Shown here one piece after another: positions 14,979 through 32,743 of a stretch of DNA of 32,931 nucleotides; positions within the stretch are counted from its first letter, which is position 1, and each line of letters starts with the position of its first letter. Location of the stretch: contig CAKPLV010000001.1 in assembly GCA_934167735.1 (NCBI GenBank), positions 1 to 32,931 on the forward strand. The letters are read 5' to 3'. The position numbers were made by a program, and so were the translations under genes. The stretch comes from an uncultured Clostridia bacterium (lineage in GTDB: Bacteria; Bacillota; Clostridia; TANB77; CAG-508). The notes under the pieces are model-generated. The model made no database searches. It was not told where the DNA came from and saw only the letters and a list, made by a program, of their open reading frames with translations.

Positions 14979-15036
14979 ACATTTTGTATTGTATTTTTTC
15001 TATTTTTATATTACAATATTGATGAGGTGTTTTAAT

Positions 15037-16434
15037 ATGAAAAAGAAAATATGTTTAACAATATTTTTGTTAATTATTTTAATGGCAAATAGTGTTTTTG
15101 CTGTTTCAACAACAATGCAAATTGTTGAAGACAATGTCTGTACAATAAATTTAACAGATTCATCTAGTCTTGAAAAGAAATTAATTAGTTATGATTTAAC
15201 TAAACATCAAGTAACTTTACAATTAAAAGTAAAAAATGATTCAAAAGTTATTATTCCATCTGGAGAGTTAATGTTAGTTATTGATAGTTCTCAAAGTATG
15301 GATACAGTTGTTTCTGGAACGACAACAAGAAAAGATTTAGTATTAAATTCAGCTAACAAATTAGTTGAAAGTTTACTAACAGCAAATAGTTCAACATTAA
15401 AAATTGGTGTTGTAACATTTTCAACAAGTGCCGAGAAAGATCCAAATACAGGTGCTTTAATTACAGGAACAGAAGCAGATGCTCAAAAAGTTTGTAATTT
15501 AACAAATAACTTGTCACAATTAAAAACTAGTATTTCAGGAATCCAAGGTGTTGGACAATATACTGACCTAGATTCTGGTTTACAATTAGCTAAAAAATCA
15601 TTTTCATCTGAGAACAATAATAAATACATGATTGTATTAACAGATGGGTTACCAAACATAGCTGTTGGTTATAATGATTTAGTTTCATACCAAGGTTTAA
15701 CAAATATAATTAATCAAACAAAATCAACATTAACTTCTTTTGGAAATACAAAAATTATAACAATGTTAACTGGTATTGATAATGAAGAAGCAACATTTAG
15801 ACAAGAAGGAACTCAAATATATACATATGGTGATGTTATAAAAGCTGTTTTTGGAACAGTCGAAAATCCAACAGTTGGTAAATTCTATAATGTAAAAGAT
15901 ACTGATATAGAAAATACAATAACAAATTCAATTTATAGAGATCTACTACCAATTGCAAAAACTTTAAAAAATATAAAAGTTGTAGATTACTTCCCTCAAT
16001 ATATTGTTGATAATTTTGAAATGACATATGTTGATGGAATAGATACTTCAAATGTTTCTGCACAAATAGATACAACAACAAATAGTATTACTTGGAATAT
16101 TGCAGAACTAGCACCAGATGAAACTGCAACTATCCAATATAATTTAAAATTAAAAGATGAATTTAGTGAAGAAATTATTGATAAGATATTAGACACAAAC
16201 GAAAAAGTTGATGTAACTTATGATGATTATGATGGTAATAAACAAAATAAAACTTCAGATGTTACTCCAAAAATTAAATTAATTAAAGATGAAGAACCAG
16301 TTGTTCCTAAAGATGACACTGTTGCACCAGAACCATTACCAAAAGCAGGATCTGCATTTGTTGCAATCGGAGCATTTATATTACTTACAGGTTCAGCTAT
16401 ATTCTTCGGATATAATTCCAAAAAAATAAAATAA
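15037..16434 (+). CDS. Secreted von Willebrand factor A-domain protein with C-terminal LPKAG cell-wall sorting signal
   Basis: Preferred start is the ATG at 15037, with GAGGTG RBS 7 nt upstream and signal peptide MKKKICLTIFLLIILMANSVFA. MIDAS DSSQSM, and LTDG. An Ig-like stalk region (ITWNIAELAPDETATIQYNLKLK). LPKAG (16336-16350) is followed by a hydrophobic helix and a KKIK tail. Confidence 0.85.
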   Translation: MKKKICLTIFLLIILMANSVFAVSTTMQIVEDNVCTINLTDSSSLEKKLISYDLTKHQVTLQLKVKNDSKVIIPSGELMLVIDSSQSMDTVVSGTTTRKDLVLNSANKLVESLLTANSSTLKIGVVTFSTSAEKDPNTGALITGTEADAQKVCNLTNNLSQLKTSISGIQGVGQYTDLDSGLQLAKKSFSSENNNKYMIVLTDGLPNIAVGYNDLVSYQGLTNIINQTKSTLTSFGNTKIITMLTGIDNEEATFRQEGTQIYTYGDVIKAVFGTVENPTVGKFYNVKDTDIENTITNSIYRDLLPIAKTLKNIKVVDYFPQYIVDNFEMTYVDGIDTSNVSAQIDTTTNSITWNIAELAPDETATIQYNLKLKDEFSEEIIDKILDTNEKVDVTYDDYDGNKQNKTSDVTPKIKLIKDEEPVVPKDDTVAPEPLPKAGSAFVAIGAFILLTGSAIFFGYNSKKIK

Positions 16435-19880: not shown

Positions 19881-22800
19881 TTAATCTCTAAAATATTTTT
19901 TATAACATATATCTATATCAACAAATTCGCTTGGTACTCCTGGTACAGATCCTTTTGATGTATATTGCCAAATTGTATAATCCCCTTTATAACTTGATGG
20001 ATTATTTATTGGATCATCTGTACGAGTATAATGTGCAAGCCAAACATCACAATCTTTTAATTGACTCATATCTATTTGATTTTCTAACCAATCTTTATTT
20101 GCATATAACATGGCTTTTTTACCATCTTGTCTTATTCTTTCAATAAATGCTCTTATTATTGCAGTTCTATCTGCAACTGATAATGAGTCTGCTCTACCTC
20201 CTGATTGTTCAACATCTATTGCTATTGGATATGTTAATTTATCTCCATATCCATAATCATTTACAAGTTTTAACATAAATTCTGCTTCTTCTATGGCTTC
20301 TGGAATTGTAATTGCTTGTGAATATACATATACACCAACTTCAAGTCCATTTGCTAATGCATTTTTTATATTGTTCATATATGTTCTATCTACATTCAAA
20401 CTTCCTGTTCCATAACCTCTAAATGCTGCTCTTATCATTGTAAATTGTATTCCAGATTTTTTTACTTTTCCCCAATCAATTGAGCCATTGTGTACAGATA
20501 CATCTATACCTATATCATATTTATTATATATTACAATTTTTCTGGTTTCAGAATACAATATTTCACCTTCTCTTGAAACAACTTCAAATTTTAAATCTGC
20601 TTTTCCATCTTCAAATTTTGAAATATCTATTTCTGCTTCAAATCCAGGTGTTGGATTTTTTTCTTTTCCACCAAATCCTTTTATTGCATTTATTACATCT
20701 TGTCTTTCTGTTCTAATTAAATCTAAAACATCTTGTTTTTGATTATTTATGTAAAAATTTAATGTTGCTTGCTCATCTGTTGTCATTACCCATCCTGCAA
20801 TATTTAATTTTGCCTTAGATTGTCCCATTATAAGTGGCATATCTATATATGCATCTGCATTATATCTGTTAACATTTATTATTCTTTTATTACTTGCAAT
20901 TATATCACCTGTTCTAGAAACAATATCTACTCTAATTGTATGTTCTCCATCTTTTAAATCTGTTATATCAATAGTATATGAGAACCCTGGTTTTTTATTT
21001 TGTTCTGCTGTTCCAAATCCTTTTATTGCATTTATTACATCTTGTCTTTCTGCTCTTTCTTCTGAAATTGCCTTTGTTTCATTTCCATCTACATAAATTT
21101 TTATTTGTGCTTCTGTGTCATCTGTCATAAGCCAACCATCTACATTAGTTGTTTTTCCTTCTACTTCTTGTAATTTCATTTCTGATGGTGTTTCAACACA
21201 TACATTAGCTTTATATTTTTCTATTATTATATTTCTTTGTTCTGATACAATTATATCTCCGTTTTTTGCTCTAACTTCAACTAATATTACATGTGTACCT
21301 TCACCTATTTTTATTGTATTTAATTCTGCTGAAAATCCTGGTTTTGGGTTTTGAATAGCAGTTCCACATTCTTTTATTCCATTTAAAACATCTTGTCTTT
21401 CATGTCTTTGTATCTCTACTATTTCTTGTTCTTTACCATCTATATAGAATTTTATGTCTGTTTCACTCTCTGTAGTCATTATCCATCCATCAATATTAAT
21501 TATTGGTTTTACAACTCCTAATACTTTAGGATTTTCTATATACATTTGTCCATTATATTTTTGTAAATTTATTGTACTAACTCCTGATGATAATAGCTCT
21601 CCTGTTGCTGATTCAACATTTATTTTTATTATATGTTTTCCATCATTAAATTTTGATAAATCAATATTTAATGAGAATCCTGGTGTTGGATTTTGTTCAA
21701 CATTTCCATAATCTTTTATTGCATTTAGAACATCTTGTCTTTCATGTCTTTGGATTTCTCCAACATTTTGTTCTTTACCATCAACATATATTTTTATTTT
21801 TGATTCAGTATCTGTTGTCATTACCCAACCACCTATAAATAAGTTTGTTCCTAAAATGTTATTTTCTCTAATAGTACTTGGTGTTTCAATACAACTTTGT
21901 GCAACATATTTTTTTAAGTTTATTGCTAATGTGTTTGTAACTAGTATTTCTCCATTTTTAGATTCAACATTTACTTTTATTGTATGTTTTCCATCATTTA
22001 TTTCGGCTAAATCAATTTTTAATGAAAAACCTGGCATTGGATTTTGTTCTGCTGTTCCGAATCCTTTTATTGCATTTATTACATCTTGTCTTTCAAATCT
22101 TTGTGTTTCTGCAATTTTCTGTTCTTTACCATCTATATATACTTTTAGTTCTGAATTAATATCATTAGTCATTAACCAACCATCTATTGAAATCTTATCA
22201 CCTAATATTGTATTTTCAATTCTATTATTTAAAGATTCTACATACATGTCTGCTTTATATCCTATAATATTAATTGTTCGAATATCTGTATCTAGTACAT
22301 CTCCAGCTTGAGATTTTATTTCAGTTTTTATTGTATGTTCTCCACTTTTTAAAGAACTTATATCTAATTTAGCACTATATCCTGGATTAGGATTCTGCTC
22401 AGATGAGCCGAATCCTTTTATTGCATTTATTACGTCTTGTCTTTCATATCTTTGTATTTCTTTTATTTCTTGTTCTTTATTGTCTATTGATATTTTTAAT
22501 TGTGCATTTTTATCATTTGACATATACCATCCATCTATTGTAACTTCATCTCTTGTTGTTACTATATTTTCTATGTATGTTTGTGCATTGTATATGTTTT
22601 TTATATTAATTGTTCTTATGTTATATGTTAATTTTTTTCCTGACTGTGATTCAATTTCTACTTTTAGAATATGTTGACCTAATTTTATTTTAGATGTGTC
22701 TACTTCTGCTGAAAATCCTGGCATTGGATTTTCTTCAATTGTTCCATATCCTTTTATAGCATTTATTACATCTTGTCTTTCATATCTTTCAAGATTAGAA

Positions 22801-23039
22801 ATTTCTTGTTCTATATCATCTATATATATTTTTATGTTTGCTTGAGGATCATTTGACATATACCATCCATTAATTTCTAATTTTTCTGTCGCATCTGTTA
22901 TTCCTATTTCTGATGGATTTTCTATATATGTTTGAGCTATATAATCTTCTTGTTCATTAGCAATTGCCTTTATTGATTTTATATTTATTAAAATCAGCAT
23001 TGCTAATACAACAGTAAAAAGTATTTTAATTTTTTTCAT
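19881..23039 (-). CDS. Secreted GH25 muramidase (lysozyme) preceded by seven ~115-aa tandem repeat domains
   Basis: Preferred ATG at 23039, with AGGAGG 8 nt upstream. The track's first codon is a GTG 2 nt from the RBS. Signal peptide [26 protein letters not shown]-terminal GH25 domain (19884-20516): [31 protein letters not shown]. Confidence 0.85.
20517..22940 (-). repeat. Seven in-frame tandem protein repeats (112-117 aa each) inside the GH25 gene
   Basis: Each unit reads (A)QxYIE..I.GW.M(S/T).D..IKIY(I/V)DGKEQ...(R)xERQDV(I/L)NAIKG(F/Y)G..EQNPxPGFS..(I/L)D(I/L)S....G.H.IKV.V.S..GE.L. A ~32-nt core is nearly identical at 22750, 22414, 22063, 21019 and 20677. Confidence 0.85.
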
Positions 23040-23071
23040 ATACACAACCTCCTATATTTTTATACAGTTAT

Positions 23072-23127: not shown

Positions 23128-24234
23128 TTATTTTAGTTCTGTTTTTGTTAAATCAAGTGCGGCTCTAATGACTTTGTCCATATCATAGTATTTATAATTT
23201 CCAAGTCTTCCACCAAAAATAACATTTTTTTCTTGATCTGCCAATTCTTTATATTTTTCAAATAATGTGTTATTTTTTTCATCATTTACAGGATAATATG
23301 CTTCATCACCTTTTTTCCAATCCATTGGATATTCTTTAGTAACTACTGTTCCTTTACATTTATTAAACTCAAAGTGTTTATGTTCAATAATACGTGTGTA
23401 TTTTTCATTATGACTTGTATAATTTACAACAGCATTTCCTTGATAATCATCTATATCTTCATATATTTCATTATCAAATTTTAATGAACGCCATTCAAGA
23501 TTTCCATATTTATAATCAAAATATTCATCTATCATTCCTGTATATAATATTTTGTCTGCTAATTCATTATATTTTTCTTTATTTTTTAAGTAATCTACTC
23601 CTACTTCTACATCTGCATTTTCTAGCATTTTTTCAATTATTATGTTATATCCACCTTCTGGAATTCCTTGATATCTATCATTAAAATAATTATTGTCATA
23701 TATGAATCTTACAGGTAATCTTTTTATTATAAATGCTGGTAATTCTTTGCAATCTCTTCCCCATTGTTTTTCAGTATATTCTTTTACAAGTTTTAAATAA
23801 ATATCTTTTCCTACAAGTGATATTGCTTGTTCTTCAAGATTTTTTGGTTCTTTTATATCATATTCATTTTTTTGTTTTTCTATTATTTCTTTGGCTTGTG
23901 CTGGTGTTGCAATTCCCCATAATTTTGAGAATGTATTCATATTAAATGGAAGATTATATATCTCTCCTTTGTAATTTGCTATTGGTGAATTAATATAATT
24001 GTTAAATTCAACAAATTGATTTACATATTGCCATATTTCTTTGTCACTTGTATGGAATATATGTGCACCATATTTATGAACATTTATACCATTAATTTTT
24101 TCACAATATATATTTCCACCTATGTGATTTCTTCTATCTATTACTAGACATTTCTTTCCTTTTTTATTTGCTTCATATGCAAATGTTGCTCCAAATAATC
24201 CTGCTCCAACTATTAAATAATCATATTTTTTCAT
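23128..24234 (-). CDS. glf: UDP-galactopyranose mutase
   Basis: 368 aa. YDYLIVGAGLFGATFAYE..GKKCLVIDRRNHIGGN (FAD fold) and the typical Glf C-terminal GRLGNYKYYDMD. Confidence 0.92.
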   Translation of the reverse strand: MKKYDYLIVGAGLFGATFAYEANKKGKKCLVIDRRNHIGGNIYCEKINGINVHKYGAHIFHTSDKEIWQYVNQFVEFNNYINSPIANYKGEIYNLPFNMNTFSKLWGIATPAQAKEIIEKQKNEYDIKEPKNLEEQAISLVGKDIYLKLVKEYTEKQWGRDCKELPAFIIKRLPVRFIYDNNYFNDRYQGIPEGGYNIIIEKMLENADVEVGVDYLKNKEKYNELADKILYTGMIDEYFDYKYGNLEWRSLKFDNEIYEDIDDYQGNAVVNYTSHNEKYTRIIEHKHFEFNKCKGTVVTKEYPMDWKKGDEAYYPVNDEKNNTLFEKYKELADQEKNVIFGGRLGNYKYYDMDKVIRAALDLTKTELK

Positions 24235-24249
24235 AACAAACTCTCTCCT

Positions 24250-25161
24250 TTATTCTTCATTTTCCTTTGGCATTGCAAATTCTATTTTTGGATTAAAAAA
24301 TATTCCAGCAAAAAATCCTTTTGTTAATGCACCTATTCTTTTTAGTTTTGCATCTTTTGAGTGAAATAATACTCTAAATATCCACATTATATATATTAAT
24401 GGATATTTTATTACTTCTATTGCTCCAAGTCTTTTACTTATGTAAAATGTATTTCTAAAGTTATAATAACATCTATTTACTCTTTCTTTTGGTATTGTAA
24501 CTATATCTGCTGTAACATTTTCTTTCATTTTGTGTATTACAACACTATCTAGATCTAGGTATCCTTTTTTTACTTTTCCAAGTCTTATTGTATATTCCCA
24601 GTCATCACCATAAATGAAGAATTGTGTTATAGGAAGTCCAACTTTTTTTGCAACTTCAAGATTTATATAACATGAAACAAAAGAACTTCTTTCTATATTG
24701 ATTAATCTATCATCTATTTTTTCGTATTCATCAAGCCAATTTGGATTGATGATTTGAACATTCATCTTACATATACTTTTGTTGTCTTTCCATTTTACTA
24801 AACTTCCTAAAAAAGAAAAGTCATTATTTAATATTTTAGTTTTGTTTACTAATGATTCTAAAGCAGTAGGTGTTGGAATTGTATCATCATCCATTACCCA
24901 ACAATAATCATAGTTTCTTTCTATTGCTTGTCTAATTCCAAAATTAAATCCTCCTGCTCCTCCTAAGTTTGCACCTGTATTCATATATTTTAATTTATCA
25001 CTAACATATTTTTTCACAACTTCTTCTGTTCCATCAGTACTTGCATTATCTATTATTAATATATCTAGATTTTCATAACTTTGATTAAGCAAAGCTTTTA
25101 TATTTTCTTCTAATAGTTCTTTTCTATTATAAGTAACTACAACTGCAACAATTTTATTCAT
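24250..25161 (-). CDS. GT2 glycosyltransferase (rhamnosyl/galactofuranosyl-transferase-like subgroup)
   Basis: 303 aa. VAVVVTYNRKELLEENIKALLNQ, ILIIDNASTDGT, NLGGAGGFNFG, WVMDDDTIP. Overlaps the flippase stop by 8 nt (ATGAATAA). Confidence 0.8.
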   Translation of the reverse strand: MNKIVAVVVTYNRKELLEENIKALLNQSYENLDILIIDNASTDGTEEVVKKYVSDKLKYMNTGANLGGAGGFNFGIRQAIERNYDYCWVMDDDTIPTPTALESLVNKTKILNNDFSFLGSLVKWKDNKSICKMNVQIINPNWLDEYEKIDDRLINIERSSFVSCYINLEVAKKVGLPITQFFIYGDDWEYTIRLGKVKKGYLDLDSVVIHKMKENVTADIVTIPKERVNRCYYNFRNTFYISKRLGAIEVIKYPLIYIMWIFRVLFHSKDAKLKRIGALTKGFFAGIFFNPKIEFAMPKENEE

Positions 25162-26614
25162 TACATTGCCCCTCCTTTTTCTTATTATTTATTATTTCTT
25201 TTATATTTTTTATATTATTCATAATAAATTCATCTTTTAAAATTATAAGCATTGTACCATATATTATAATTCCTATTGCAACTAAAATCATTGTATTTAA
25301 TATTGTTGCTGTTAATTTTGTTGATATCAAATATACTATAATTCCCATTGTGATACTGCTTATCCAATATTTCCAAGAATTTTCTGTTATTTCTTTTACC
25401 TTCATTTCTTTTTTCAAGAAATGTACTTGCACAACAAGTACTAGAAATTCAGAAATTACAGAAGCAATGGCAGCACCAGATGCTTTAAATAGTCTTATTA
25501 AAATTATATTTAAAATCAAGTTACTTATTGCACCTACTGTTACTGAAATTGTATATGCTTCATTTCTTCCAGTTGGAATTAAATATTGCATACCTGTTAC
25601 ATTGCTTAACCCTATAAATATTAATATTGGACTTATTGTTATCATTAGTGGAACAACTTCATCATATCCTGTACCATAAAACCATGGTACAACACTTGAG
25701 GCAACTGCCATTGTTCCAAACATTATAGGTAACCCTATGAGCCAAACAAACTTAAATGATAATTTAATATAATCATTTATTTTTTCTTTTGCCTCATTTG
25801 CATATATATTAGATATTCTTGAAGTCATTACAGTTCCAAATGCTGTAACAACCAATAATAATGTTTTTATTATTTTTTGAGCTTGTTCATAATATCCAAC
25901 TTGCTTCATGTCCCCTAAAATTGCACCAATCATTGTTTTGTCTAATACAACATATATTTGTGTAGCAATTTGTGGAACAAATAATACAATCATAGCTTTT
26001 ATATGTTTTTTTAATTCTATTTTTTCTACTTTTTCTATATATTTGGGCATATAAAACCATAAAGATAGGTTTCCAAGTAGGTTTGAGATTGTATATATTG
26101 CTATATATATTGTTAAGTGTTCTGGTGATTTTACAAATATAAATATTGATATTATACTTATTGTTTTAATAACCAAATTTCTTAATACTGTTTTTTTAAA
26201 TTCTTCCAATCCTTGAAAATACCATGTGATATCAAACATTGTAGAAAACATTTCTATCAAAAGAATTTTATAATATAATGTATTTTCTCCTCTTAGACAA
26301 AATGTCATATAATAAGTAACCATTGATATAGTCAATGTAATTGCTCTTATAATTACAATTTCTAAAAAGACTTTGCTTTGTTTTTTCTTATCATTTTGAA
26401 CATATGCAATTTCTCTTTGTCCATACATTGCAGCTCCAAGTGAACCAAATAATACAAAGTATGTTACTATTGAATATGTATATCCATATGTACCTATTGC
26501 TTCTGCTCCTAGAACTCTTGAAACATATGGTGCAGTAATTAGTGGAGTTACTACTAATAATAACTGATAAATCAAATTATATATGTAATTTTTTGCTATG
26601 CTTTTCTTTTTCAC
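25154..26614 (-). CDS. MOP-superfamily polysaccharide flippase (Wzx-like)
   Basis: 486 aa with about 12-14 TM helices. GTG start with AGGAGA RBS. Typical N-terminus (NLIYQLLLVVTPLITAPYVSRVLGAEAIG). Confidence 0.8.
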   Translation of the reverse strand: MKKKSIAKNYIYNLIYQLLLVVTPLITAPYVSRVLGAEAIGTYGYTYSIVTYFVLFGSLGAAMYGQREIAYVQNDKKKQSKVFLEIVIIRAITLTISMVTYYMTFCLRGENTLYYKILLIEMFSTMFDITWYFQGLEEFKKTVLRNLVIKTISIISIFIFVKSPEHLTIYIAIYTISNLLGNLSLWFYMPKYIEKVEKIELKKHIKAMIVLFVPQIATQIYVVLDKTMIGAILGDMKQVGYYEQAQKIIKTLLLVVTAFGTVMTSRISNIYANEAKEKINDYIKLSFKFVWLIGLPIMFGTMAVASSVVPWFYGTGYDEVVPLMITISPILIFIGLSNVTGMQYLIPTGRNEAYTISVTVGAISNLILNIILIRLFKASGAAIASVISEFLVLVVQVHFLKKEMKVKEITENSWKYWISSITMGIIVYLISTKLTATILNTMILVAIGIIIYGTMLIILKDEFIMNNIKNIKEIINNKKKEGQCNE

Positions 26615-26623
26615 TTTTGTCTC

Positions 26624-26830
26624 CTATCTAACTAATATTTTTTGTATTGTTCTAACAAAACGTTGTGGAAAAACTTTTTGTTCTGTATTATATACAGGCA
26701 TCTCCTTTATTTTTAAATTATTATTTTTTTCTAGCCATACTCTAAATAGTCTTTCAGATAAAAAGCCATATATTCTCTTATCATAGTCTGAATAATTTGT
26801 TATATCAACTCTGTTTTCAAGTTCAAATAA
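26624..26830 (-). other. Same-frame continuation of the DUF4422 domain downstream of the TGA (68 codons, ends at TAG 26626-26624)
   Basis: Translation: LFELENRVDITNYSDYDKRIYGFLSERLFRVWLEKNNNLKIKEMPVYNTEQKVFPQRFVRTIQKILVR. It ends 9 nt before the next gene's GTG. Confidence 0.7.
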
Positions 26831-28570
26831 TCATTTATAATAGTCATTAAATATTTCTTTTTTAGATATAAACATATTATATAAATATAATTTTCTACCA
26901 TTTGCAACTTTATCAAAAGCTTCTAAATATTCTGGATATTTTTCAAATATAATTTCTCTACATTTATCCAAATCTTCACCATGATGAAACTTCGCATATG
27001 CTCCTTTTACTGAATATTTTACTATTCTTTCTGTTTCCGGAACAATAATATCATATTCATTTAAGATATTTTTAATATCTTTTTCATCTAATATATCTTT
27101 AATTGAATTTGTATTTTTGTTTTTGAAAAAATATCTTCTATAATGTGTTAGACCTGTTATATCTGATTTATCATTTTTCCAAATCCAATATGCAGCTGTT
27201 AGTTCACAAAAATTTGGATTTTTAGTTGAAATATTTTCTTCTGTATTATCTCTTATTTCTGTAAATTTTTCTTTTGTTCCTACTTGTATTGGTTTATAAA
27301 TTTTGTTTTCTGGAAATGTTGCTGGTTTATGTGATACAACATATATTGTTACATTTTCATTTTTTTCTTGTTTTTCTTTCATTTTATCCTCATATAATTT
27401 TATATATTCTTTAAATTTTAACTCTTTATCATAATGTTTAGAACTTTCTAAACATTCTCTAGTTTTCTTTGGCTTTCCTTTTAATTGTTTAACAATTTTT
27501 TCTACTGAATCTACATCACCTTGTTCTACTACATATCCCCATTCTTTGTCAACACTCTCAACACTTCCACCTGTTTTATATGTAATAATTGGTGTTCCAC
27601 AAGCAATTGATTCTAAATTAGTTGTTGGAAAGTTTTCTTCATATGTAGGATTAAAAAATACATCTGCTGTTGTATATAATTCAGCTAATTGTTCTATACT
27701 CTCTGTTCTTGGAATTGAGATTATATTTTGTGGTATATTTTTTTGTTGAGATTTTTTTAATCCTACTAGAACAATTTGATAATTTTCATCTATTTTTTTA
27801 GATAATCTTATAAAAGATTCTAATCCTTTTCTTTTTTCCCATACACTTGCAACTCCAAGAATTATAAATTTATTTTCTAAATTATATTTTTTTCTAAAGT
27901 CTCCTTGTGTTGGTTTAAATTTTTCTAAGTTAATTCCATTATTTATAACTACTACTTTTTTGTCTTTTAAATATGATTGTTTTACTAAATCTGCAAGCCA
28001 TTGTGATGGTGTAACAAGTGTAAGATCTTTAATATTATTAAATAATTCTTTTTTCTTTTCATAATTTTTCTTTGAATTATCAAATATTAGGCTTGGTGGA
28101 TATGTGGTTTTTTGAGGACAATGTTCACATCCTGTTTTCCATTTATCACATTTTGCATAATCAAAATATGTGCAGTGTCCTGTAATTGCCCAACAATTAT
28201 GCATTGTATATATTACTGGTTTATTTATTTTCGCTAAATATTTTAGTAATACTTCAATATTTATATAATATCCTAGTAAACTATGTAATTGTATTATATC
28301 TGGGTCATATTCATCAATCTTTTTTATTAGTCTATGTGTTGCCCATGTTGATAGAAATGCACTATTATCAAATATCATTGATATCCCTATATGAAATAAA
28401 TTATTAATTTTTCCACATATTTTAATTGTTTTAACACCTTCTGGTGCACCTCTTCTACCATAGGCAATGACACAGTCATTGCCCTCTTTTTCTAATACAT
28501 TATATAAATCTACTGCTATTTTTCCAGTACTACAATTTCCACATACTGCATTTATTTGTAAAACTTTCAT
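26831..28570 (-). CDS. GT4 glycosyltransferase fused to a DUF4422-type domain; standard-code ORF ends prematurely at TGA
   Basis: 579 aa. GT4 part with EENFPTTNLESIACG (EX7E). From residue ~406 a DUF4422-like module (VTIYVVSHK, CELTAAYWIWKN, GLTHYRRYF, YNMFISKKEIF) stops about 70 residues short of normal length. Confidence 0.8.
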   Translation of the reverse strand: MKVLQINAVCGNCSTGKIAVDLYNVLEKEGNDCVIAYGRRGAPEGVKTIKICGKINNLFHIGISMIFDNSAFLSTWATHRLIKKIDEYDPDIIQLHSLLGYYINIEVLLKYLAKINKPVIYTMHNCWAITGHCTYFDYAKCDKWKTGCEHCPQKTTYPPSLIFDNSKKNYEKKKELFNNIKDLTLVTPSQWLADLVKQSYLKDKKVVVINNGINLEKFKPTQGDFRKKYNLENKFIILGVASVWEKRKGLESFIRLSKKIDENYQIVLVGLKKSQQKNIPQNIISIPRTESIEQLAELYTTADVFFNPTYEENFPTTNLESIACGTPIITYKTGGSVESVDKEWGYVVEQGDVDSVEKIVKQLKGKPKKTRECLESSKHYDKELKFKEYIKLYEDKMKEKQEKNENVTIYVVSHKPATFPENKIYKPIQVGTKEKFTEIRDNTEENISTKNPNFCELTAAYWIWKNDKSDITGLTHYRRYFFKNKNTNSIKDILDEKDIKNILNEYDIIVPETERIVKYSVKGAYAKFHHGEDLDKCREIIFEKYPEYLEAFDKVANGRKLYLYNMFISKKEIFNDYYK

Positions 28571-28572
28571 TA

Positions 28573-30183
28573 TTATTTCCTTTCAGCTTGTTTTGATTTT
28601 ATTTTTTCAATTATCATTGTACATAGATATCCAAAGTGTATCAATAATGCCAAATTTACAGCTATATATGATGATATTACATATCTATCAATTAATGCTC
28701 CTAATACTGCATTCATTAATACATTTAAAAATGCATATCCATATAATATTGTTAATAATTCATATATTCTAAGTTTTTTGTTTTCATATTTTTTTATTTT
28801 TAAAACAATAAATTTTATAAATGCTGCTAATGCTAATATTGGTGAAGCTAATAAAAATAGTTTAAATGTATATATTGTTATTAAAAATAATCTTGTCATA
28901 TACATATTTACAAATTTTATTTGTCTATTAACACCAACATAATTTTCTATATAACTATAATAATGTTCAGGAACTCCTAAATCATTGATCATATCTCTAT
29001 AAGTATTGTATCCTATGAAACTATTTTCATAAGTATCTGCCCATGTTAATTCATGTGTTGCAACTGCAGAAGCATCTACTGTTTGTGCTTTGAATAATCC
29101 TATTGTTGTAAAATAATTGCATACATAACCTTTTATAATTGAATTTGGATCTTCCAAAAATGCTGACATTTCAAATTTAAGTGCTTCAGCAACAGATACT
29201 GCTTCTTCTTTTGAATATAATACTTTTATTTTTGTATTATTTGCACATTCATATAATGCATAATTTTTATATTGTTTTGATTTTCCATCTATTATTTCAT
29301 TTATTTTGTCTTTATCCTCTTGAGATATTTTTTCATTTGCAGTTATTTTTTCTTTTGTGTATTCTTCTTTATCTTCTATATAATGATATTCTGTCATTCC
29401 TGCAAGAATTTGACCACTTAAAAATCCTGAAGAAGTTCTTCCTTGTTCAATTACAACATTATAATGTACTAATGTAAAATTCCACAATTTAATACTTGCT
29501 AATAATGTTATTCCACATACTACTAAAGATACTGCTCTTTGTAAAACATTTTTCCAGTTCCAGTTCTTTATGTAACTTAAAATTATACTTATAATTACTG
29601 GTGCAAGTATTGTTAATACATATGGTTGTTTTAAATGCCACATAAATGCCATTGAACATCCAAAGTATAATGTATATATTATATATTTTATTTTACTTGT
29701 CTCAAAATTACATTCAATCCATTTCCATGCAAAATATGATGCAACTATACATGCTGTCATAGAAACAAATTCTGTTAATATTACATGATAATATCCAAAA
29801 ATCATTGGGTTTAATATTATTAAAAACACAGCTAAAATTACTAATGCTATTTTTAAGAATTTATTAAATTTGAATTCTTCATCCATTTCTTTTAATATTT
29901 CATATGTAACTCCCAATACTGCTACATATGCTATAGACATCCCTATTTGTAATGATATTACATTTTCTCCACAAATTACGGTCAAAATGTGGATAATCAT
30001 TGGAAATACTATTCCTCTGGCAACATCCCAATTTTGAAATGATGCTCTATCTCCTATTAAGTTTGACAACCATGTATAGTGTGAAGAATCAACACATATA
30101 ACAATGTTATAACTAAAAAATATTATTGTTAATATAACTAATGCTGTGATACTTAATATTTTTTTTACTTTTTCTTTTCTCAT
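28573..30183 (-). CDS. Polytopic membrane protein with ~170-aa extracytoplasmic loop; candidate GT-C-fold glycosyltransferase or glycan polymerase
   Basis: 536 aa. About 8 N-terminal TMs with an Asp-containing first loop (VCVDSSHY), a soluble K/E-rich loop, then about 4 C-terminal TMs. 1-2 nt junctions on both sides. No family recognised with certainty. Confidence 0.55.
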   Translation of the reverse strand: MRKEKVKKILSITALVILTIIFFSYNIVICVDSSHYTWLSNLIGDRASFQNWDVARGIVFPMIIHILTVICGENVISLQIGMSIAYVAVLGVTYEILKEMDEEFKFNKFLKIALVILAVFLIILNPMIFGYYHVILTEFVSMTACIVASYFAWKWIECNFETSKIKYIIYTLYFGCSMAFMWHLKQPYVLTILAPVIISIILSYIKNWNWKNVLQRAVSLVVCGITLLASIKLWNFTLVHYNVVIEQGRTSSGFLSGQILAGMTEYHYIEDKEEYTKEKITANEKISQEDKDKINEIIDGKSKQYKNYALYECANNTKIKVLYSKEEAVSVAEALKFEMSAFLEDPNSIIKGYVCNYFTTIGLFKAQTVDASAVATHELTWADTYENSFIGYNTYRDMINDLGVPEHYYSYIENYVGVNRQIKFVNMYMTRLFLITIYTFKLFLLASPILALAAFIKFIVLKIKKYENKKLRIYELLTILYGYAFLNVLMNAVLGALIDRYVISSYIAVNLALLIHFGYLCTMIIEKIKSKQAERK

Positions 30184-30184
30184 G

Positions 30185-32743
30185 TTATTCTCCTTTTAAT
30201 TTACCTTTTATTTTTTTAGCAATTCTCCATATTTTTGAACTTCTTAATCTTTCATATTTATAAACAACATGTCCATATGTATTTGTATATATTTCATATT
30301 GATATGCTGTATTTTGTTTTTGATAATCTATTAATCCATATATATTTGCTGGTTCTTCATTTTTATGTTCTACTGATTTATATATATCATAATATTGTTT
30401 TTGCATTTCTTCTACTGATTTGAATTTATAATTTGCAAAATTGCTTTTTATTTTGTTATATTCTTTTGTATTTTTTGATATTTCAGAAATTCTTTTTAAT
30501 ATATCTTCTTCTTTTGTGTTTAAATCAATTGTCCATCCTAAATTTCCAGCTTTTATTCTTTCAGCAATTGCTCCTATATTAAATGAAAGTACTGGTATAT
30601 TTGCCATAAATGCTTCTGTTAATGTATATGAATATGTTTCTGGTACTGTTGATAATATACATACAAGATCAATTTCATTTTTAACAAGCAATTCTGGTAA
30701 TTCTTCTCTATTATATTGTCCATGATAAAAATAGTTTGAGTGATTTTGTTTTAAATAATTGTCATCTGCTTTTCCAAATAAGTGTAATTCTATTTCACTA
30801 TTTGTATTTTTAGCAATCATTTCTTTTAAAACACTGCTTCCTTTATGTGGAACCATTACACCTGTAAATGCAACTTTAAATTTACTTTTATCTTGTTTTT
30901 CATGATGATCTAATTTAACAATTGTTGTTCCATGTTCAATAACATCAATTTTTAATTCTGAATAAAAATTATTAAATATTGTTTTTGTATTATTTGATGG
31001 AACTATTATTTTGTCAAATCTTTTTAAAATATTATAACAATTTCTTCTCCAACTCTCGATAATATTATGATTTATTCCATATCTTTGATGTAGACAATTT
31101 TCACAATTTCTCTTTTCATTTGTTTCACAATATTTTTCTTCATAAACCATATTTATTGAAGGACATAACATATATAAATCATGTAATGATATTACTTTAT
31201 ATGTGTTATATTTTTCTGCAATATCAATTATATCAAATGTTTGGAATAACAAATGATGTACATGTACTATGTCAAATTTATATGCTTCAAATATTTTTTC
31301 TAACATATTTTTATATGAACTGTCTGTATATATAGTTTGTCCATAATCTCTTATTTGTGTTTTAAATGTATTTATTTTTCTTGAATAATTTTTTGTATAT
31401 AAATACAAATCAAATACAGATAAATCAAATCTATTTGGTGCTAGTACAAAACATGCCATTTCATCTTTCATTTTATTTATTATATCTTTTAAATGTAAAG
31501 ATGTTCCACCTGTCATTTGCATATCTTCTTGCCATTCATTTATTAAGAATAATACTCTTTTTTGTTTGTACATTTGTAAGTTAATTATTATATTTTCTTG
31601 AATTTCTCTAAATGGATTTTTAGATATAAACATATCTGTTTTTTGTACATATATTGGGTATTTTTCTCTAAGTCTTTTCATATGACTTTTTACAAGCTCA
31701 GCTCTGGCTTGTGTCATATTTTCTACTTTAAATGATTGTGTTCCTTTATGATATATAAATGTATTATCACATAAAACATTTGTATATCCATAATCTAATG
31801 CTCTATAACAAAAGTCGTTTTCTTCTCCAAATCCTTTTTCAAATGTAATATCATCAAAAAGTCCAATTTCGTCTAGTACAGATCTTTTTATGTACATACA
31901 ATATCCATTTCCTGTAGTTACTTCTGGATATCTTTTTTCTGAACAATCTTCTACAAGTTTTGCAAATTCTTCAAGAGTTAGGTCTTTTGGAAGCTCATTA
32001 TCAACTCCAAAATTAGGTATTGAAAATATTGTTCCATTGTTTGTAAATGGTGTTACTGTTGCAATATGTTCATTTGAATATGCACATTCACTTATTTTTT
32101 CTAACCAATTTGCAGTTACTTCTGTATCACTATTTAATAGTATTACATCATTTTTAGAATATTTCATTCCTTTATTAACTGTTTTTACAAATCCTAGATT
32201 TTCTTCATTATCTAATACTATCGCTTCTTTAAGTTCTTCTTGAACTGATTTTGGAAGTGATTTTATTTGTATAGAAGTTTTTTCTACTAATTCTTTTTTG
32301 CCTTCTTTATTATATTTGAAAACACTTATATATCCATCTTCATTTTCTAATGTGTATTTGTTTGCTTTTGATAAATCCGTACCGTCTTCAGAAGTCTTTA
32401 GAATTATTTGATATTTATTCATTGTTGATACTTCTTTATCTGGATATTTTTCTTTTAATGCTGTTTTTATTTCGTCTTCAGTTTTATTTAATAAGTCCTC
32501 ATTTACTTTACCTAACATTACAGGTATTTCATTATCGTCTTGAAGCCATATTTGGCAATATTCATCTAATTTGAATTTTTGTTTACTAGAAAGATTCTTT
32601 TGAGTTGTGTTGTCAACTTTTGTGCTGTTTGCTTCAAGTGTTTCGTAGCTTTTTACTCCTACGAAAATACCTCCACTTAATAATATTACTCCTAATGCTA
32701 TTAATGACGGAATAATCCAGCGATAATTATCCATGTTTTTCAT
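30185..32743 (-). CDS. Membrane-anchored bifunctional glycosyltransferase: TM + unknown (BofC-like?) module + GT2 core + GT4 domain
   Basis: 852 aa. N-terminal TM (IIPSLIALGVILLSGGIFVGV). GT2 blocks: NLGFVKTVNKG, ILLNSDTEV, GFGEENDFCYRA. C-terminal GT4 with PETYSYTLTEA (EX7E). AAAGGAGGAGGA RBS. Confidence 0.8.
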   Translation of the reverse strand: MKNMDNYRWIIPSLIALGVILLSGGIFVGVKSYETLEANSTKVDNTTQKNLSSKQKFKLDEYCQIWLQDDNEIPVMLGKVNEDLLNKTEDEIKTALKEKYPDKEVSTMNKYQIILKTSEDGTDLSKANKYTLENEDGYISVFKYNKEGKKELVEKTSIQIKSLPKSVQEELKEAIVLDNEENLGFVKTVNKGMKYSKNDVILLNSDTEVTANWLEKISECAYSNEHIATVTPFTNNGTIFSIPNFGVDNELPKDLTLEEFAKLVEDCSEKRYPEVTTGNGYCMYIKRSVLDEIGLFDDITFEKGFGEENDFCYRALDYGYTNVLCDNTFIYHKGTQSFKVENMTQARAELVKSHMKRLREKYPIYVQKTDMFISKNPFREIQENIIINLQMYKQKRVLFLINEWQEDMQMTGGTSLHLKDIINKMKDEMACFVLAPNRFDLSVFDLYLYTKNYSRKINTFKTQIRDYGQTIYTDSSYKNMLEKIFEAYKFDIVHVHHLLFQTFDIIDIAEKYNTYKVISLHDLYMLCPSINMVYEEKYCETNEKRNCENCLHQRYGINHNIIESWRRNCYNILKRFDKIIVPSNNTKTIFNNFYSELKIDVIEHGTTIVKLDHHEKQDKSKFKVAFTGVMVPHKGSSVLKEMIAKNTNSEIELHLFGKADDNYLKQNHSNYFYHGQYNREELPELLVKNEIDLVCILSTVPETYSYTLTEAFMANIPVLSFNIGAIAERIKAGNLGWTIDLNTKEEDILKRISEISKNTKEYNKIKSNFANYKFKSVEEMQKQYYDIYKSVEHKNEEPANIYGLIDYQKQNTAYQYEIYTNTYGHVVYKYERLRSSKIWRIAKKIKGKLKGE

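Follow-up and report, generated by a model that had tools for sequence, protein, structure and literature searches.

A 12-nt deletion probably truncates a two-module glycosyltransferase gene in a surface-polysaccharide locus of an uncultured gut Clostridia-like bacterium

WbbM (6U4B) is the founding member of the GT111/DUF4422 glycosyltransferases. Single glycosyltransferase genes in O-antigen and capsule loci undergo strain-specific inactivation by small deletions, frameshifts and IS elements; the rfb-50 IS5 insertion in wbbL, for example, makes Escherichia coli K-12 rough. In the classical slipped-mispairing model, deletions arise between short direct repeats in replication. Low-level UGA-to-Trp read-through is documented in Bacillus subtilis. 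DUF4422 corresponds to the GT111 UDP-galactofuranose (UDP-Galf) transferase fold, which includes the DUF4422 domain of WbbM (PMC12269835).

We analysed a stretch of 32,931 bp (hereafter the window) that constitutes one entire contig and has a GC content of 26.4%. The contig is probably part of a metagenome-assembled genome (MAG), its sequence probably being a metagenome-assembled consensus, and the host is an uncultured, low-GC gut Clostridia-like bacterium from a Gram-positive-type gut Clostridia lineage. A cell-surface polysaccharide cluster is present on the window. Its minus strand carries a 579-aa ORF (positions 26831..28570) with matches to the Pfam families Glyco_transf_4, Glycos_transf_1 and DUF4422. 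This ORF comprises an intact N-terminal GT4 module (approximately residues 1-400) and the first ~175 residues of a DUF4422/GT111 module. The next gene downstream encodes a 486-aa Wzx-type polysaccharide flippase (25154..26614, minus strand) with matches to Polysacc_synt, Polysacc_synt_3 and MurJ. An apparently split copy of this flippase in L001, one of the loci aligned below, was rejected as a scaffold gap followed by foreign sequence rather than biology.

The flippase gene is followed by genes for a 303-aa GT2 glycosyltransferase (24250..25161, minus strand), whose best NCBIfam match, galactofuranosyltransferase GlfT1, falls under the family cutoff, and for the 368-aa UDP-galactopyranose mutase Glf (23128..24234, minus strand; GLF, PF03275, E 6e-82). 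Glf, three genes downstream of the GT4-DUF4422 ORF, makes UDP-galactofuranose, the expected GT111 donor, and UDP-Galf supply is thus encoded in the same locus. The GT2 glycosyltransferase is a possible second UDP-Galf user. Elsewhere the locus varies strongly between strains (its neighbouring glycosyltransferase has 852, 741 or 660 aa depending on the strain), and all window coding sequences apart from the GT4-DUF4422 gene are intact.

The 579-aa ORF ends in FNDYYK at a TGA stop (26831..26833, minus strand). Beyond this stop, the same frame continues through 68 sense codons (LFELENRVD...QKILVR) to a TAG at 26626-26624, coordinates that agree with the preliminary description. We regard this segment (26624..26830, minus strand), identified by Pfam and by DNA alignments, as the orphaned 3' remnant of the DUF4422/GT111 gene together with its original stop. 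At the off-frame stop rate of this contig (0.118 per codon, 26.4% GC), a 68-codon open frame has a probability of ~2e-4 and would not be expected by chance. We considered independent translation of the remnant and rejected it, as the sole in-frame ATG lies 24 codons from the end with an AAGGAG directly abutting it.

The flippase GTG (26614-26612) lies 9 nt from the TAG and 216 nt from the TGA, and it is preceded by an AGGAGA ribosome-binding site (26625-26620) that overlaps the original TAG (together 26612..26625, minus strand); these spacings, too, had been described correctly. The layout suggests that in the intact allele translation of the glycosyltransferase gene is coupled to that of the flippase. 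With the stop now 216 nt before the flippase start, coupled wzx translation may weaken. A search for a terminator in the newly untranslated stretch found none. The earlier statement that other cluster junctions span -8 to +15 nt holds for neighbouring genes and fails cluster-wide, with junctions of 82 and 54 nt further downstream.

Several observations identify the remnant as the genuine C-terminal part of the domain. First, when the stop is read through, the translation matches Pfam DUF4422 (PF14393) in one stretch at residues 409-616, covering profile positions 2-219 of 220 (E 1.8e-75) with a score of 254 bits against a gathering cutoff of 25. The profile thus aligns across the stop, as had been proposed. 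Second, taken by themselves, the 68 residues after the stop match positions 184-219 of the profile (E 2.2e-11, 44.4 bits). Finally, the module of the intact allele aligns with PDB WbbM 6U4B (E 7.6e-37, query residues 3-228) across the W-L-F-x-I-L and E-R-L motifs, and W-L-F-S-I-L is conserved in that alignment. Homology to a solved structure settles the DUF4422 fold. The intact gene is accordingly annotated here as a putative two-module glycosyltransferase whose C-terminal GT111 module would be a UDP-galactofuranosyltransferase.

The stop falls on a conserved Trp codon, as the preliminary description proposed. Among 60 modules of other species, this position is W in 57 and the neighbouring F is present in all 60, and the W-L-F-x-I-L-x-x-L columns are gap-free. 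Positions further downstream are similarly constrained in the same modules (R 58/60, G 59/60, E 60/60, L 57/60). All of these near-invariant W, F, R, G, E and L positions lie beyond the window's stop, and because they are removed, galactofuranosyl transfer by the truncated product is most probably lost, a reading that draws on conservation.

We identified 14 other variants of the protein in gut metagenomes, occurring on ~20 contigs from independent gut metagenomes. All have 652 aa and carry the complete domain in one ORF, with TGG at the codon in question and the motif KWLFDIL[F/L]ELE (KWLFDNILELE in one). The 579-aa product is confined to the window's contig among these ~20, and the deletion allele is therefore known from a single contig. 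Neither the 579-aa product nor the 852-aa protein next to it had any exact match on record when both were looked up for further deletion contigs. Scans of JGI metagenomes matched neither the deletion junction nor the intact junction; that collection lacks the species and so is uninformative on the allele. In a scan of GTDB species representatives, the best matches were 80% identical and came from uncultured Clostridia MAGs.

Pairwise DNA alignments to L001, L003, L004 and L086-L089 place the TGA at a deletion junction. The closest alleles (L003 and L086-L089) read AAA TGG TTG TTT GAT ATA TTA TTT GAA at the site, and the window differs from them there by one 12-nt loss, GTTGTTTGATAT, and nothing else. 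Over 3,951 nt, the window differs from L003 by this gap and two SNPs, both at least 600 nt away; from L086-L089 it differs by the same gap and four distant SNPs. Compared with every relative, a 12-nt (four-codon) deletion abuts the stop, and four conserved residues are gone as well. Across the site, the deletion allele reads AAATG followed at the junction by ATTATTTGAA, and the intact allele reads AAATGGTTRTTTGATATATTATT. T26833 and G26832 derive from the Trp TGG and A26831 from the third position of the Ile ATA, with GTTGTTTGATAT missing between 26832 and 26831. The stop thus appears, with good probability, to be the TG of the Trp codon fused by the deletion to the A of the Ile codon.

These alignments revise the earlier account of the site. 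A single TGG-to-TGA transition had been proposed; the closest alleles differ at the site by the deletion alone. The sum 174 + 1 + 68 = 243 residues, previously taken as about the family length, is four residues below the intact module. The consensus given there, WLF..ELE, is two residues too short, which is why the deletion was overlooked. Of the earlier suggestions, a mutation that is recent and specific to the strain is supported, with an assembly error as a lesser possibility; a G-to-A transition is not the best explanation of the TGA.

There are no substitutions at the site, and the 204 sense nucleotides downstream (26830-26627) are identical to those of the closest intact alleles. With a remnant that matches intact alleles throughout and has kept its frame, the deletion event would be very recent. 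As an observation in its own right, an undecayed remnant fits a very recent event, an artefact or continued use equally well.

The deletion is flanked in the intact alleles by imperfect 9-nt direct repeats. The copies, GTTGTTTGA and ATTATTTGA, are 12 nt apart and identical at 7 of 9 positions; ATTATTTGA survives in the window (26823..26831, minus strand; identified by sequence comparison), and GTTGTTTGA, which lies 12 nt upstream in intact alleles, was lost with the deletion. A single 12-bp event removing GTTGTTTGATAT from the intact sequence would be one base off codon phase, so that four codons are lost and the TG is fused to an A, creating an in-frame TGA. During replication, the nascent strand, having copied the downstream repeat, may slip forward onto the upstream repeat. 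The slipped pairing would comprise seven Watson-Crick and two G.T wobble pairs, and its product would be the exact window sequence. The junction has no perfect microhomology, and the model requires both wobble mispairs. The terminal G.T wobble is needed because one base of the retained copy falls outside the perfect 8-nt core, and the same one-base offset from the core yields a stop codon rather than a clean in-frame deletion. Overall, a repeat-flanked deletion of this kind fits replication slippage.

The same final sequence would also result from two mutations, a TGG-to-TGA transition and a separate, codon-aligned in-frame loss of TTG TTT GAT ATA. If slippage involved the TTRTTTGA repeats alone, the deletion would be in frame and TGG would be retained, as this account supposes. 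However, it demands that adjacent bases were hit twice in a lineage with just 2-4 SNPs over 2-4 kb relative to intact alleles, and the 14 variants include no intermediate, whether TGA alongside the 12 nt or TGG in their absence. We consider two mutations quite improbable.

A different concern is that the organism keeps an intact 652-aa gene and that the deletion arose from assembly, merging or polishing of reads from mixed strains. The allele is on one contig among ~20, and in the same study breaks in related scaffolds fall where strains vary. L002 is an independent scaffold from a strain with 99.9% identity; of its three N-gaps, one (10 N) coincides exactly with the deletion boundary, and in L001 an N-gap followed by foreign GC-rich sequence lies within the flippase gene. 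Two haplotypes that are several SNPs apart right after the site also exist in these samples. The gap in L002 fits the co-occurrence of two alleles in that sample. De Bruijn assemblers cannot create junction k-mers, such as AAATGATTATT, that the reads lack. Moreover, the window contains no Ns and shows no other indel against L002 over 16 kb, and a loss of exactly 12 nt between imperfect direct repeats is the pattern of biological slippage. An artefact therefore seems doubtful, and one recent biological 12-bp deletion that inactivates the GT111 module is the best explanation and a fairly probable one.

We also asked whether the TGA is decoded. Reading by a near-cognate tRNA-Trp, as in the low-level case of Bacillus subtilis, would yield a 648-aa bifunctional enzyme at low level and leave the gene partly active. 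No further stop interrupts the frame before the original one, and the TGA occupies a Trp codon. In E. coli reporters, TGA leaks more than the other stops, and Trp is mostly inserted there (PMC11126739). The same study reports that a T after the stop raises termination efficiency, and the base following the window's TGA is this unfavourable T (PMC11126739). The UGA-to-Trp read-through envisaged earlier would not restore a family-length protein: four residues would still be missing from a segment without gaps in 60 modules, and the register of conserved I/L positions would be shifted. Programmed read-through would be expected to show a stop conserved among relatives and purifying selection on the extension beyond it, whereas the stop is unique here and TGG in all 14 conspecific variants gives no visible sign of selection for it. 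The open frame is fully explained by recency, given zero downstream substitutions. Functional read-through is thus very unlikely. We give equally little credence to a further reading, in which the deletion is a real standing polymorphism of gut populations and acts as a glycan on/off variant. The scaffold break at this base in another sample hints that the two alleles coexist; a little UGA-to-Trp read-through would then provide traces of an active GT111 module shorter by four residues, so that most of the glycan would lack Galf and a small part would be decorated. Phase variation, in which a homopolymer or short tandem repeat reversibly changes length and switches the frame, does not fit the site either: 12 nt were lost once between imperfect repeats, with neither a repeat tract nor an easy route to reversion.

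An alternative code or recoding, in which TGA is a sense codon (Trp in code 4, Gly in code 25, or selenocysteine), is the least credible reading. The genome is very AT-rich (26.4% GC), and no TGA occurs among the genuine stops of the 22 other window coding sequences or of 33 conspecific called genes. This TGA had indeed been noted as the only one among 24 complete coding-sequence stops; it is the sole one, and the count is 23 (at least 100 aa; 18 TAA, 4 TAG, 1 TGA). Code-4 genomes at such GC content use TGA for most Trp, whereas all 78 Trp codons in the window are TGG and a scan of 9,971 codons found no in-frame TGA elsewhere, which leaves systematic decoding unsupported. A UGA-sense code would show many in-frame TGA codons at Trp, favoured over TGG. 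In the off-frames, TGA is as common as TAG (622 versus 616), so its avoidance is restricted to the reading frame. Conspecific genes (33 called, some recurring between loci) contain no internal stops, and conspecific alleles have TGG at the codon. A search for tRNA genes in the window found none. We know of no precedent for selenocysteine at a structural Trp position. Judged by these comparisons, the locus represents strain-specific gene inactivation, not stop-codon recoding.

Under a single recent deletion, the 579-aa product would keep its GT4 module intact and lack the last 73 residues of GT111. The likely effect is the loss of one galactofuranose transfer step, which would produce a strain-specific glycan variant. 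The finding is an ordinary one, and its overall importance is limited. It is one more case of a hypervariable surface-glycan locus that differs between strains, here in an uncultured Clostridia lineage of the human gut. Annotators should mark the 579-aa product as a disrupted gene, with GT4 intact and GT111 truncated, rather than as a natural architecture, and the 207-nt "intergenic" stretch is a gene remnant rather than regulatory DNA. Methodologically, an in-frame stop on a conserved codon may mimic a point mutation or recoding while being a deletion junction, and DNA comparison with close alleles is needed before read-through is invoked.

The locus shares with bacterial UGA-to-Trp read-through, in Bacillus subtilis and elsewhere, a UGA at a native Trp position. 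It differs in that UGA-U is unfavourable on the E. coli reporter and proteome evidence (PMC11126739), and reading through would give a product four residues short of wild type.

[quoted passage not shown] In both proteins DUF4422 is fused to a second glycosyltransferase module, and both are encoded near glf. The partner in WbbM is a C-terminal GT8, whereas here it is an N-terminal GT4, and the window's module is truncated at the conserved Trp, without 4 + 69 residues; its activity and linkage are putative. As in classical slipped mispairing, the deleted block equals the 12-nt repeat spacing, 9-nt repeats flank it and one copy is retained. The repeats here are imperfect (7/9), and the retained copy has a base beyond the perfect 8-nt core. 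As in the inactivation of O-antigen and capsule glycosyltransferases such as wbbL, one surface-glycan gene is knocked out and close relatives remain intact; here, by contrast, a 12-nt deletion would create the stop, and the bifunctional enzyme loses its second module only.

The truncated glycosyltransferase ORF runs on the minus strand from an ATG at 28570 to a TGA at 26833-26831 and encodes 579 residues (C-terminal end ...YNMFISKKEIFNDYYK). Past the TGA, the same frame stays open for 68 sense codons (LFELENRVDITNYSDYDKRIYGFLSERLFRVWLEKNNNLKIKEMPVYNTEQKVFPQRFVRTIQKILVR) up to a TAG at 26626-26624, which overlaps an AGGAGA ribosome-binding site (26625-26620, minus strand); the flippase GTG start follows at 26614-26612 (minus strand). 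In the read-through translation, Pfam places GT4 domains at residues 18-375 and a single DUF4422 (PF14393) match across the stop (residues 409-616, profile positions 2-219 of 220, E = 1.8e-75). The 68 remnant residues by themselves match DUF4422 profile positions 184-219 (E = 2.2e-11, Pfam). ORF reading and the spanning Pfam match thus confirm the preliminary description of an in-frame TGA that splits the DUF4422 module, and its coordinates are exact. The window has a GC content of 26.4% and 0.118 off-frame stops per codon, a frequency at which a frame would stay open for 68 codons by chance with a probability of ~2e-4. Stops of the window CDS of at least 100 aa number 23 (TAA 18, TAG 4, TGA 1) rather than the 24 counted earlier, and TGA is indeed unique to the truncated gene.

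Used as a protein query, the read-through translation recovered a 652-aa protein (P0001, 99% identity over the full length) and two further matches with 82% and 79% identity. These three proteins align as ...NDYYKWLFDIL[L/F]ELENRVD..., relative to which the window product has a stop at the Trp and lacks the four residues directly after it. The sum of 174 + 1 + 68 = 243 residues, previously taken as the family length, is therefore four residues short of the relatives. Fourteen of the 15 members of a 90%-identity protein cluster are 652 aa long and contain the Trp and the four residues, with DNIL in place of DILL/DILF in one of the 14. This variant, P0127, reads KWLFDNILELE rather than KWLFDIL[L/F]ELE at this short segment. 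At this AT-rich, repeat-like site, the difference is another case of variation, or possibly noise from assembly. The fifteenth member (P0132, NCBI/ENA) matches the 579-aa window product exactly and lies on a contig of 32,931 bp, the same length as the window. The window is thus one whole deposited contig, most probably from a metagenome-assembled genome. Contigs with intact alleles come from several human-gut metagenomes that are independent of each other, Hadza samples and Logan assemblies among them.

The closest alleles (loci L003 and L086-L089) read GAC TAT TAT AAA TGG TTG TTT GAT ATA TTA TTT GAA CTT where the window reads GAC TAT TAT AAA TGA TTA TTT GAA CTT. The comparison with L003 spans 3,951 nt and shows one 12-nt gap and two SNPs (27459 and 27434), both at least 600 nt away; in the ~1,980-nt gene region compared with L086-L089 (window 28580-26600), the same gap occurs together with four distant SNPs. 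The gap corresponds to GTTGTTTGATAT and falls between window bases 26832 and 26831. No substitution relative to these five loci was found at the site or in the 204 nt downstream. Because the gap comes without any substitution at the site, the TGA is a junction codon, composed of the TG of the Trp codon and the final A of the Ile codon ATA, and one event accounts for both the stop and the four missing codons. A recent mutation at the Trp codon of the module is thereby borne out (intact alleles have TGG and the remnant is identical downstream), and the proposed single TGG-to-TGA transition gives way to a 12-nt deletion, the only difference at the site. When the window is aligned to the L001 allele (TTA TTT GAT ATA TTA TTA), which is more distant, the gap falls elsewhere and leaves an apparent G/A mismatch, from which a transition could be mis-inferred. 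A two-step origin, in which a G-to-A transition was accompanied by an independent codon-aligned 12-nt deletion, is very improbable, as it requires a second, adjacent event and no intermediate allele occurs among 14 conspecific variants.

The absence of substitutions in the downstream frame relative to intact alleles points to a very recent deletion, so the open frame needs no functional explanation. Use of TGA as a sense codon was considered and rejected: Trp is encoded by TGG in 78 of 78 cases in 9,971 codons, with no in-frame TGA. Off frame in the window, TGA is as common as TAG. The 33 genes called in conspecific loci (some recurring across loci) end in TAA or TAG, and none contains an internal stop. 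The lack of genuine TGA stops in the window (0/22) is unremarkable given how AT-rich the genome is and how few stops were sampled. Some near-cognate tRNA-Trp read-through of UGA is possible in principle. At least in the E. coli reporters described in PMC11126739, TGA is mostly replaced by Trp and termination is more efficient when the stop is followed by T; the base after the window TGA is T. The suggestion of meaningful UGA-to-Trp read-through is not supported. Any protein made in this way would remain four residues short within a conserved segment that is free of gaps.

The deletion probably arose by replication slippage. The intact allele contains two 9-mers, GTTGTTTGA and ATTATTTGA, 12 nt apart and differing only by two purine transitions. 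With the coding strand as template, a nascent strand that had just copied ATTATTTGA and slipped forward onto GTTGTTTGA would form seven Watson-Crick pairs and two G.T wobbles, of which one is terminal. Extension would then yield the exact window sequence, keeping the downstream repeat copy whole; a slip one base earlier would have left TGG in place and removed four codons cleanly. The model is weakest at the deletion junction, which lacks perfect microhomology.

We consider it likely that the deletion is real, and nearly as likely that it was made in one step. An assembly artefact is improbable: the contig is free of Ns and, over 16 kb, shows no further indel relative to a 99.9%-identical scaffold, and all other window genes are intact. 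De Bruijn graph assemblers, moreover, cannot generate junction k-mers that the reads do not contain. Some caution is nevertheless called for: the deletion allele is found on the window contig only, and related MERR22-1 scaffolds are mosaics. In addition, L002/L005 (scaffold_2581), from an independent metagenome with a strain 99.9% identical to the window, is interrupted by 10-N gaps at three places in 23.7 kb, one exactly at the start of homology to the window and another exactly at the deletion boundary (...AAATGGTTATTTGATAT-N10-TATTATTAGAA...; L002:9773-9782 = L005:13252-13261, matching window 26831/26832). Within the 65-80 nt following the boundary gap, the SNPs are those of a different haplotype (L001 type). 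Because one of three gaps would land within 2 nt of a given base with a probability of only ~6e-4, the site is genuinely strain-heterogeneous or hard to assemble in that sample. The presence of both an intact and a deleted allele would account for the gap, and gap and SNPs suggest that the sample contains two alleles or strains. In one of the mosaics, L001, the flippase gene appears split into two ORFs, a reading we rejected: a 10-N gap and, after it, ~55 nt of foreign, GC-rich sequence (ACCTTCTGGTCCGTAGCCAGACGCTCTATCCAATTGGGCTATGGGCGC..., tRNA-like by eye; L001:5731-5800) mark a scaffolding chimera.

The DUF4422 module is homologous to the N-terminal domain of Klebsiella WbbM (PDB 6U4B, E = 7.6e-37), with which it shares a Y-x-x-W-L-F-x-I-L segment and an R-x-x-G-x-x-x-E-R-L motif. 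According to PMC12269835 (citing Clarke et al.), this domain is a UDP-galactofuranosyltransferase that defines family GT111. Across 60 DUF4422 modules from other species, the stop-site residue is W in 57 and F in three, the following F is invariant, and the W-L-F-x-I-L-x-x-L columns contain no gaps; past the stop, conserved positions include R (58/60), G (59/60), E (60/60), and L (57/60). The 579-aa product retains a complete GT4 module. Its GT111 module lacks 73 of ~250 residues, including six near-invariant positions, and is thus most probably inactive or unfolded, judging from sequence conservation.

The surrounding cluster encodes a UDP-galactopyranose mutase (Glf, 23128-24234), a GT2 (24250-25161) whose closest NCBIfam model, GlfT1, scores below cutoff, a Wzx flippase (25154-26614), further GTs that include an 852-aa GT2+GT4 fusion and a second GT2, and an epimerase; the flanks contain housekeeping genes (FtsK, DivIVA, SepF, MiaA, MutL, MreB). 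Since glf and a second candidate Galf-transferase remain, an altered glycan is likely, rather than loss of the whole pathway. In intact alleles, stop, ribosome-binding site, and start lie within 14 nt (TAGGAGACAAAAGTG), which suggests translational coupling of the glycosyltransferase and flippase genes. A stop 216 nt upstream may lower flippase translation; the newly untranslated stretch contains no terminator-like site.

Gene content of the glycan locus varies by strain. The 852-aa fusion, two genes upstream of the truncated gene (30185-32743, minus strand), has counterparts of 741 aa in L086-L089 (L086:6161-8386) and 660 aa, GT4 only, in L002 (L002:4425-6407), where homology stops at a scaffold gap. 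Directly upstream of the truncated gene, a strongly hydrophobic 536-aa protein (28573-30183, minus strand; 100% conserved in L002) has no Pfam or NCBIfam match and could be a Wzy-like polymerase or GT-C-type enzyme. Mid-cluster, a 1,054-aa protein (19881-23045, minus strand) combines Big_7 Ig-like repeats with a C-terminal GH25 muramidase domain; its gene contains two 220-nt segments (~20921-21142 and ~21965-22186) that are 77% identical. The sole long plus-strand gene (14989-16434; TTG start in the mechanical ORF call) encodes VWA and GBS104-like tip-pilin Ig domains and may specify a pilus tip adhesin. Positions 1-1456 contain no ORF of at least 100 aa wholly inside the window on either strand and may belong to a gene that is cut off by the contig end, or be non-coding.

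Only one feature is unusual: a 12-nt deletion, being out of phase with the codons, creates a stop on a conserved Trp codon and so mimics a nonsense transition or recoding site. The kind of event is already known: in a hypervariable surface-polysaccharide locus, one glycosyltransferase gene is disrupted in a strain-specific manner.
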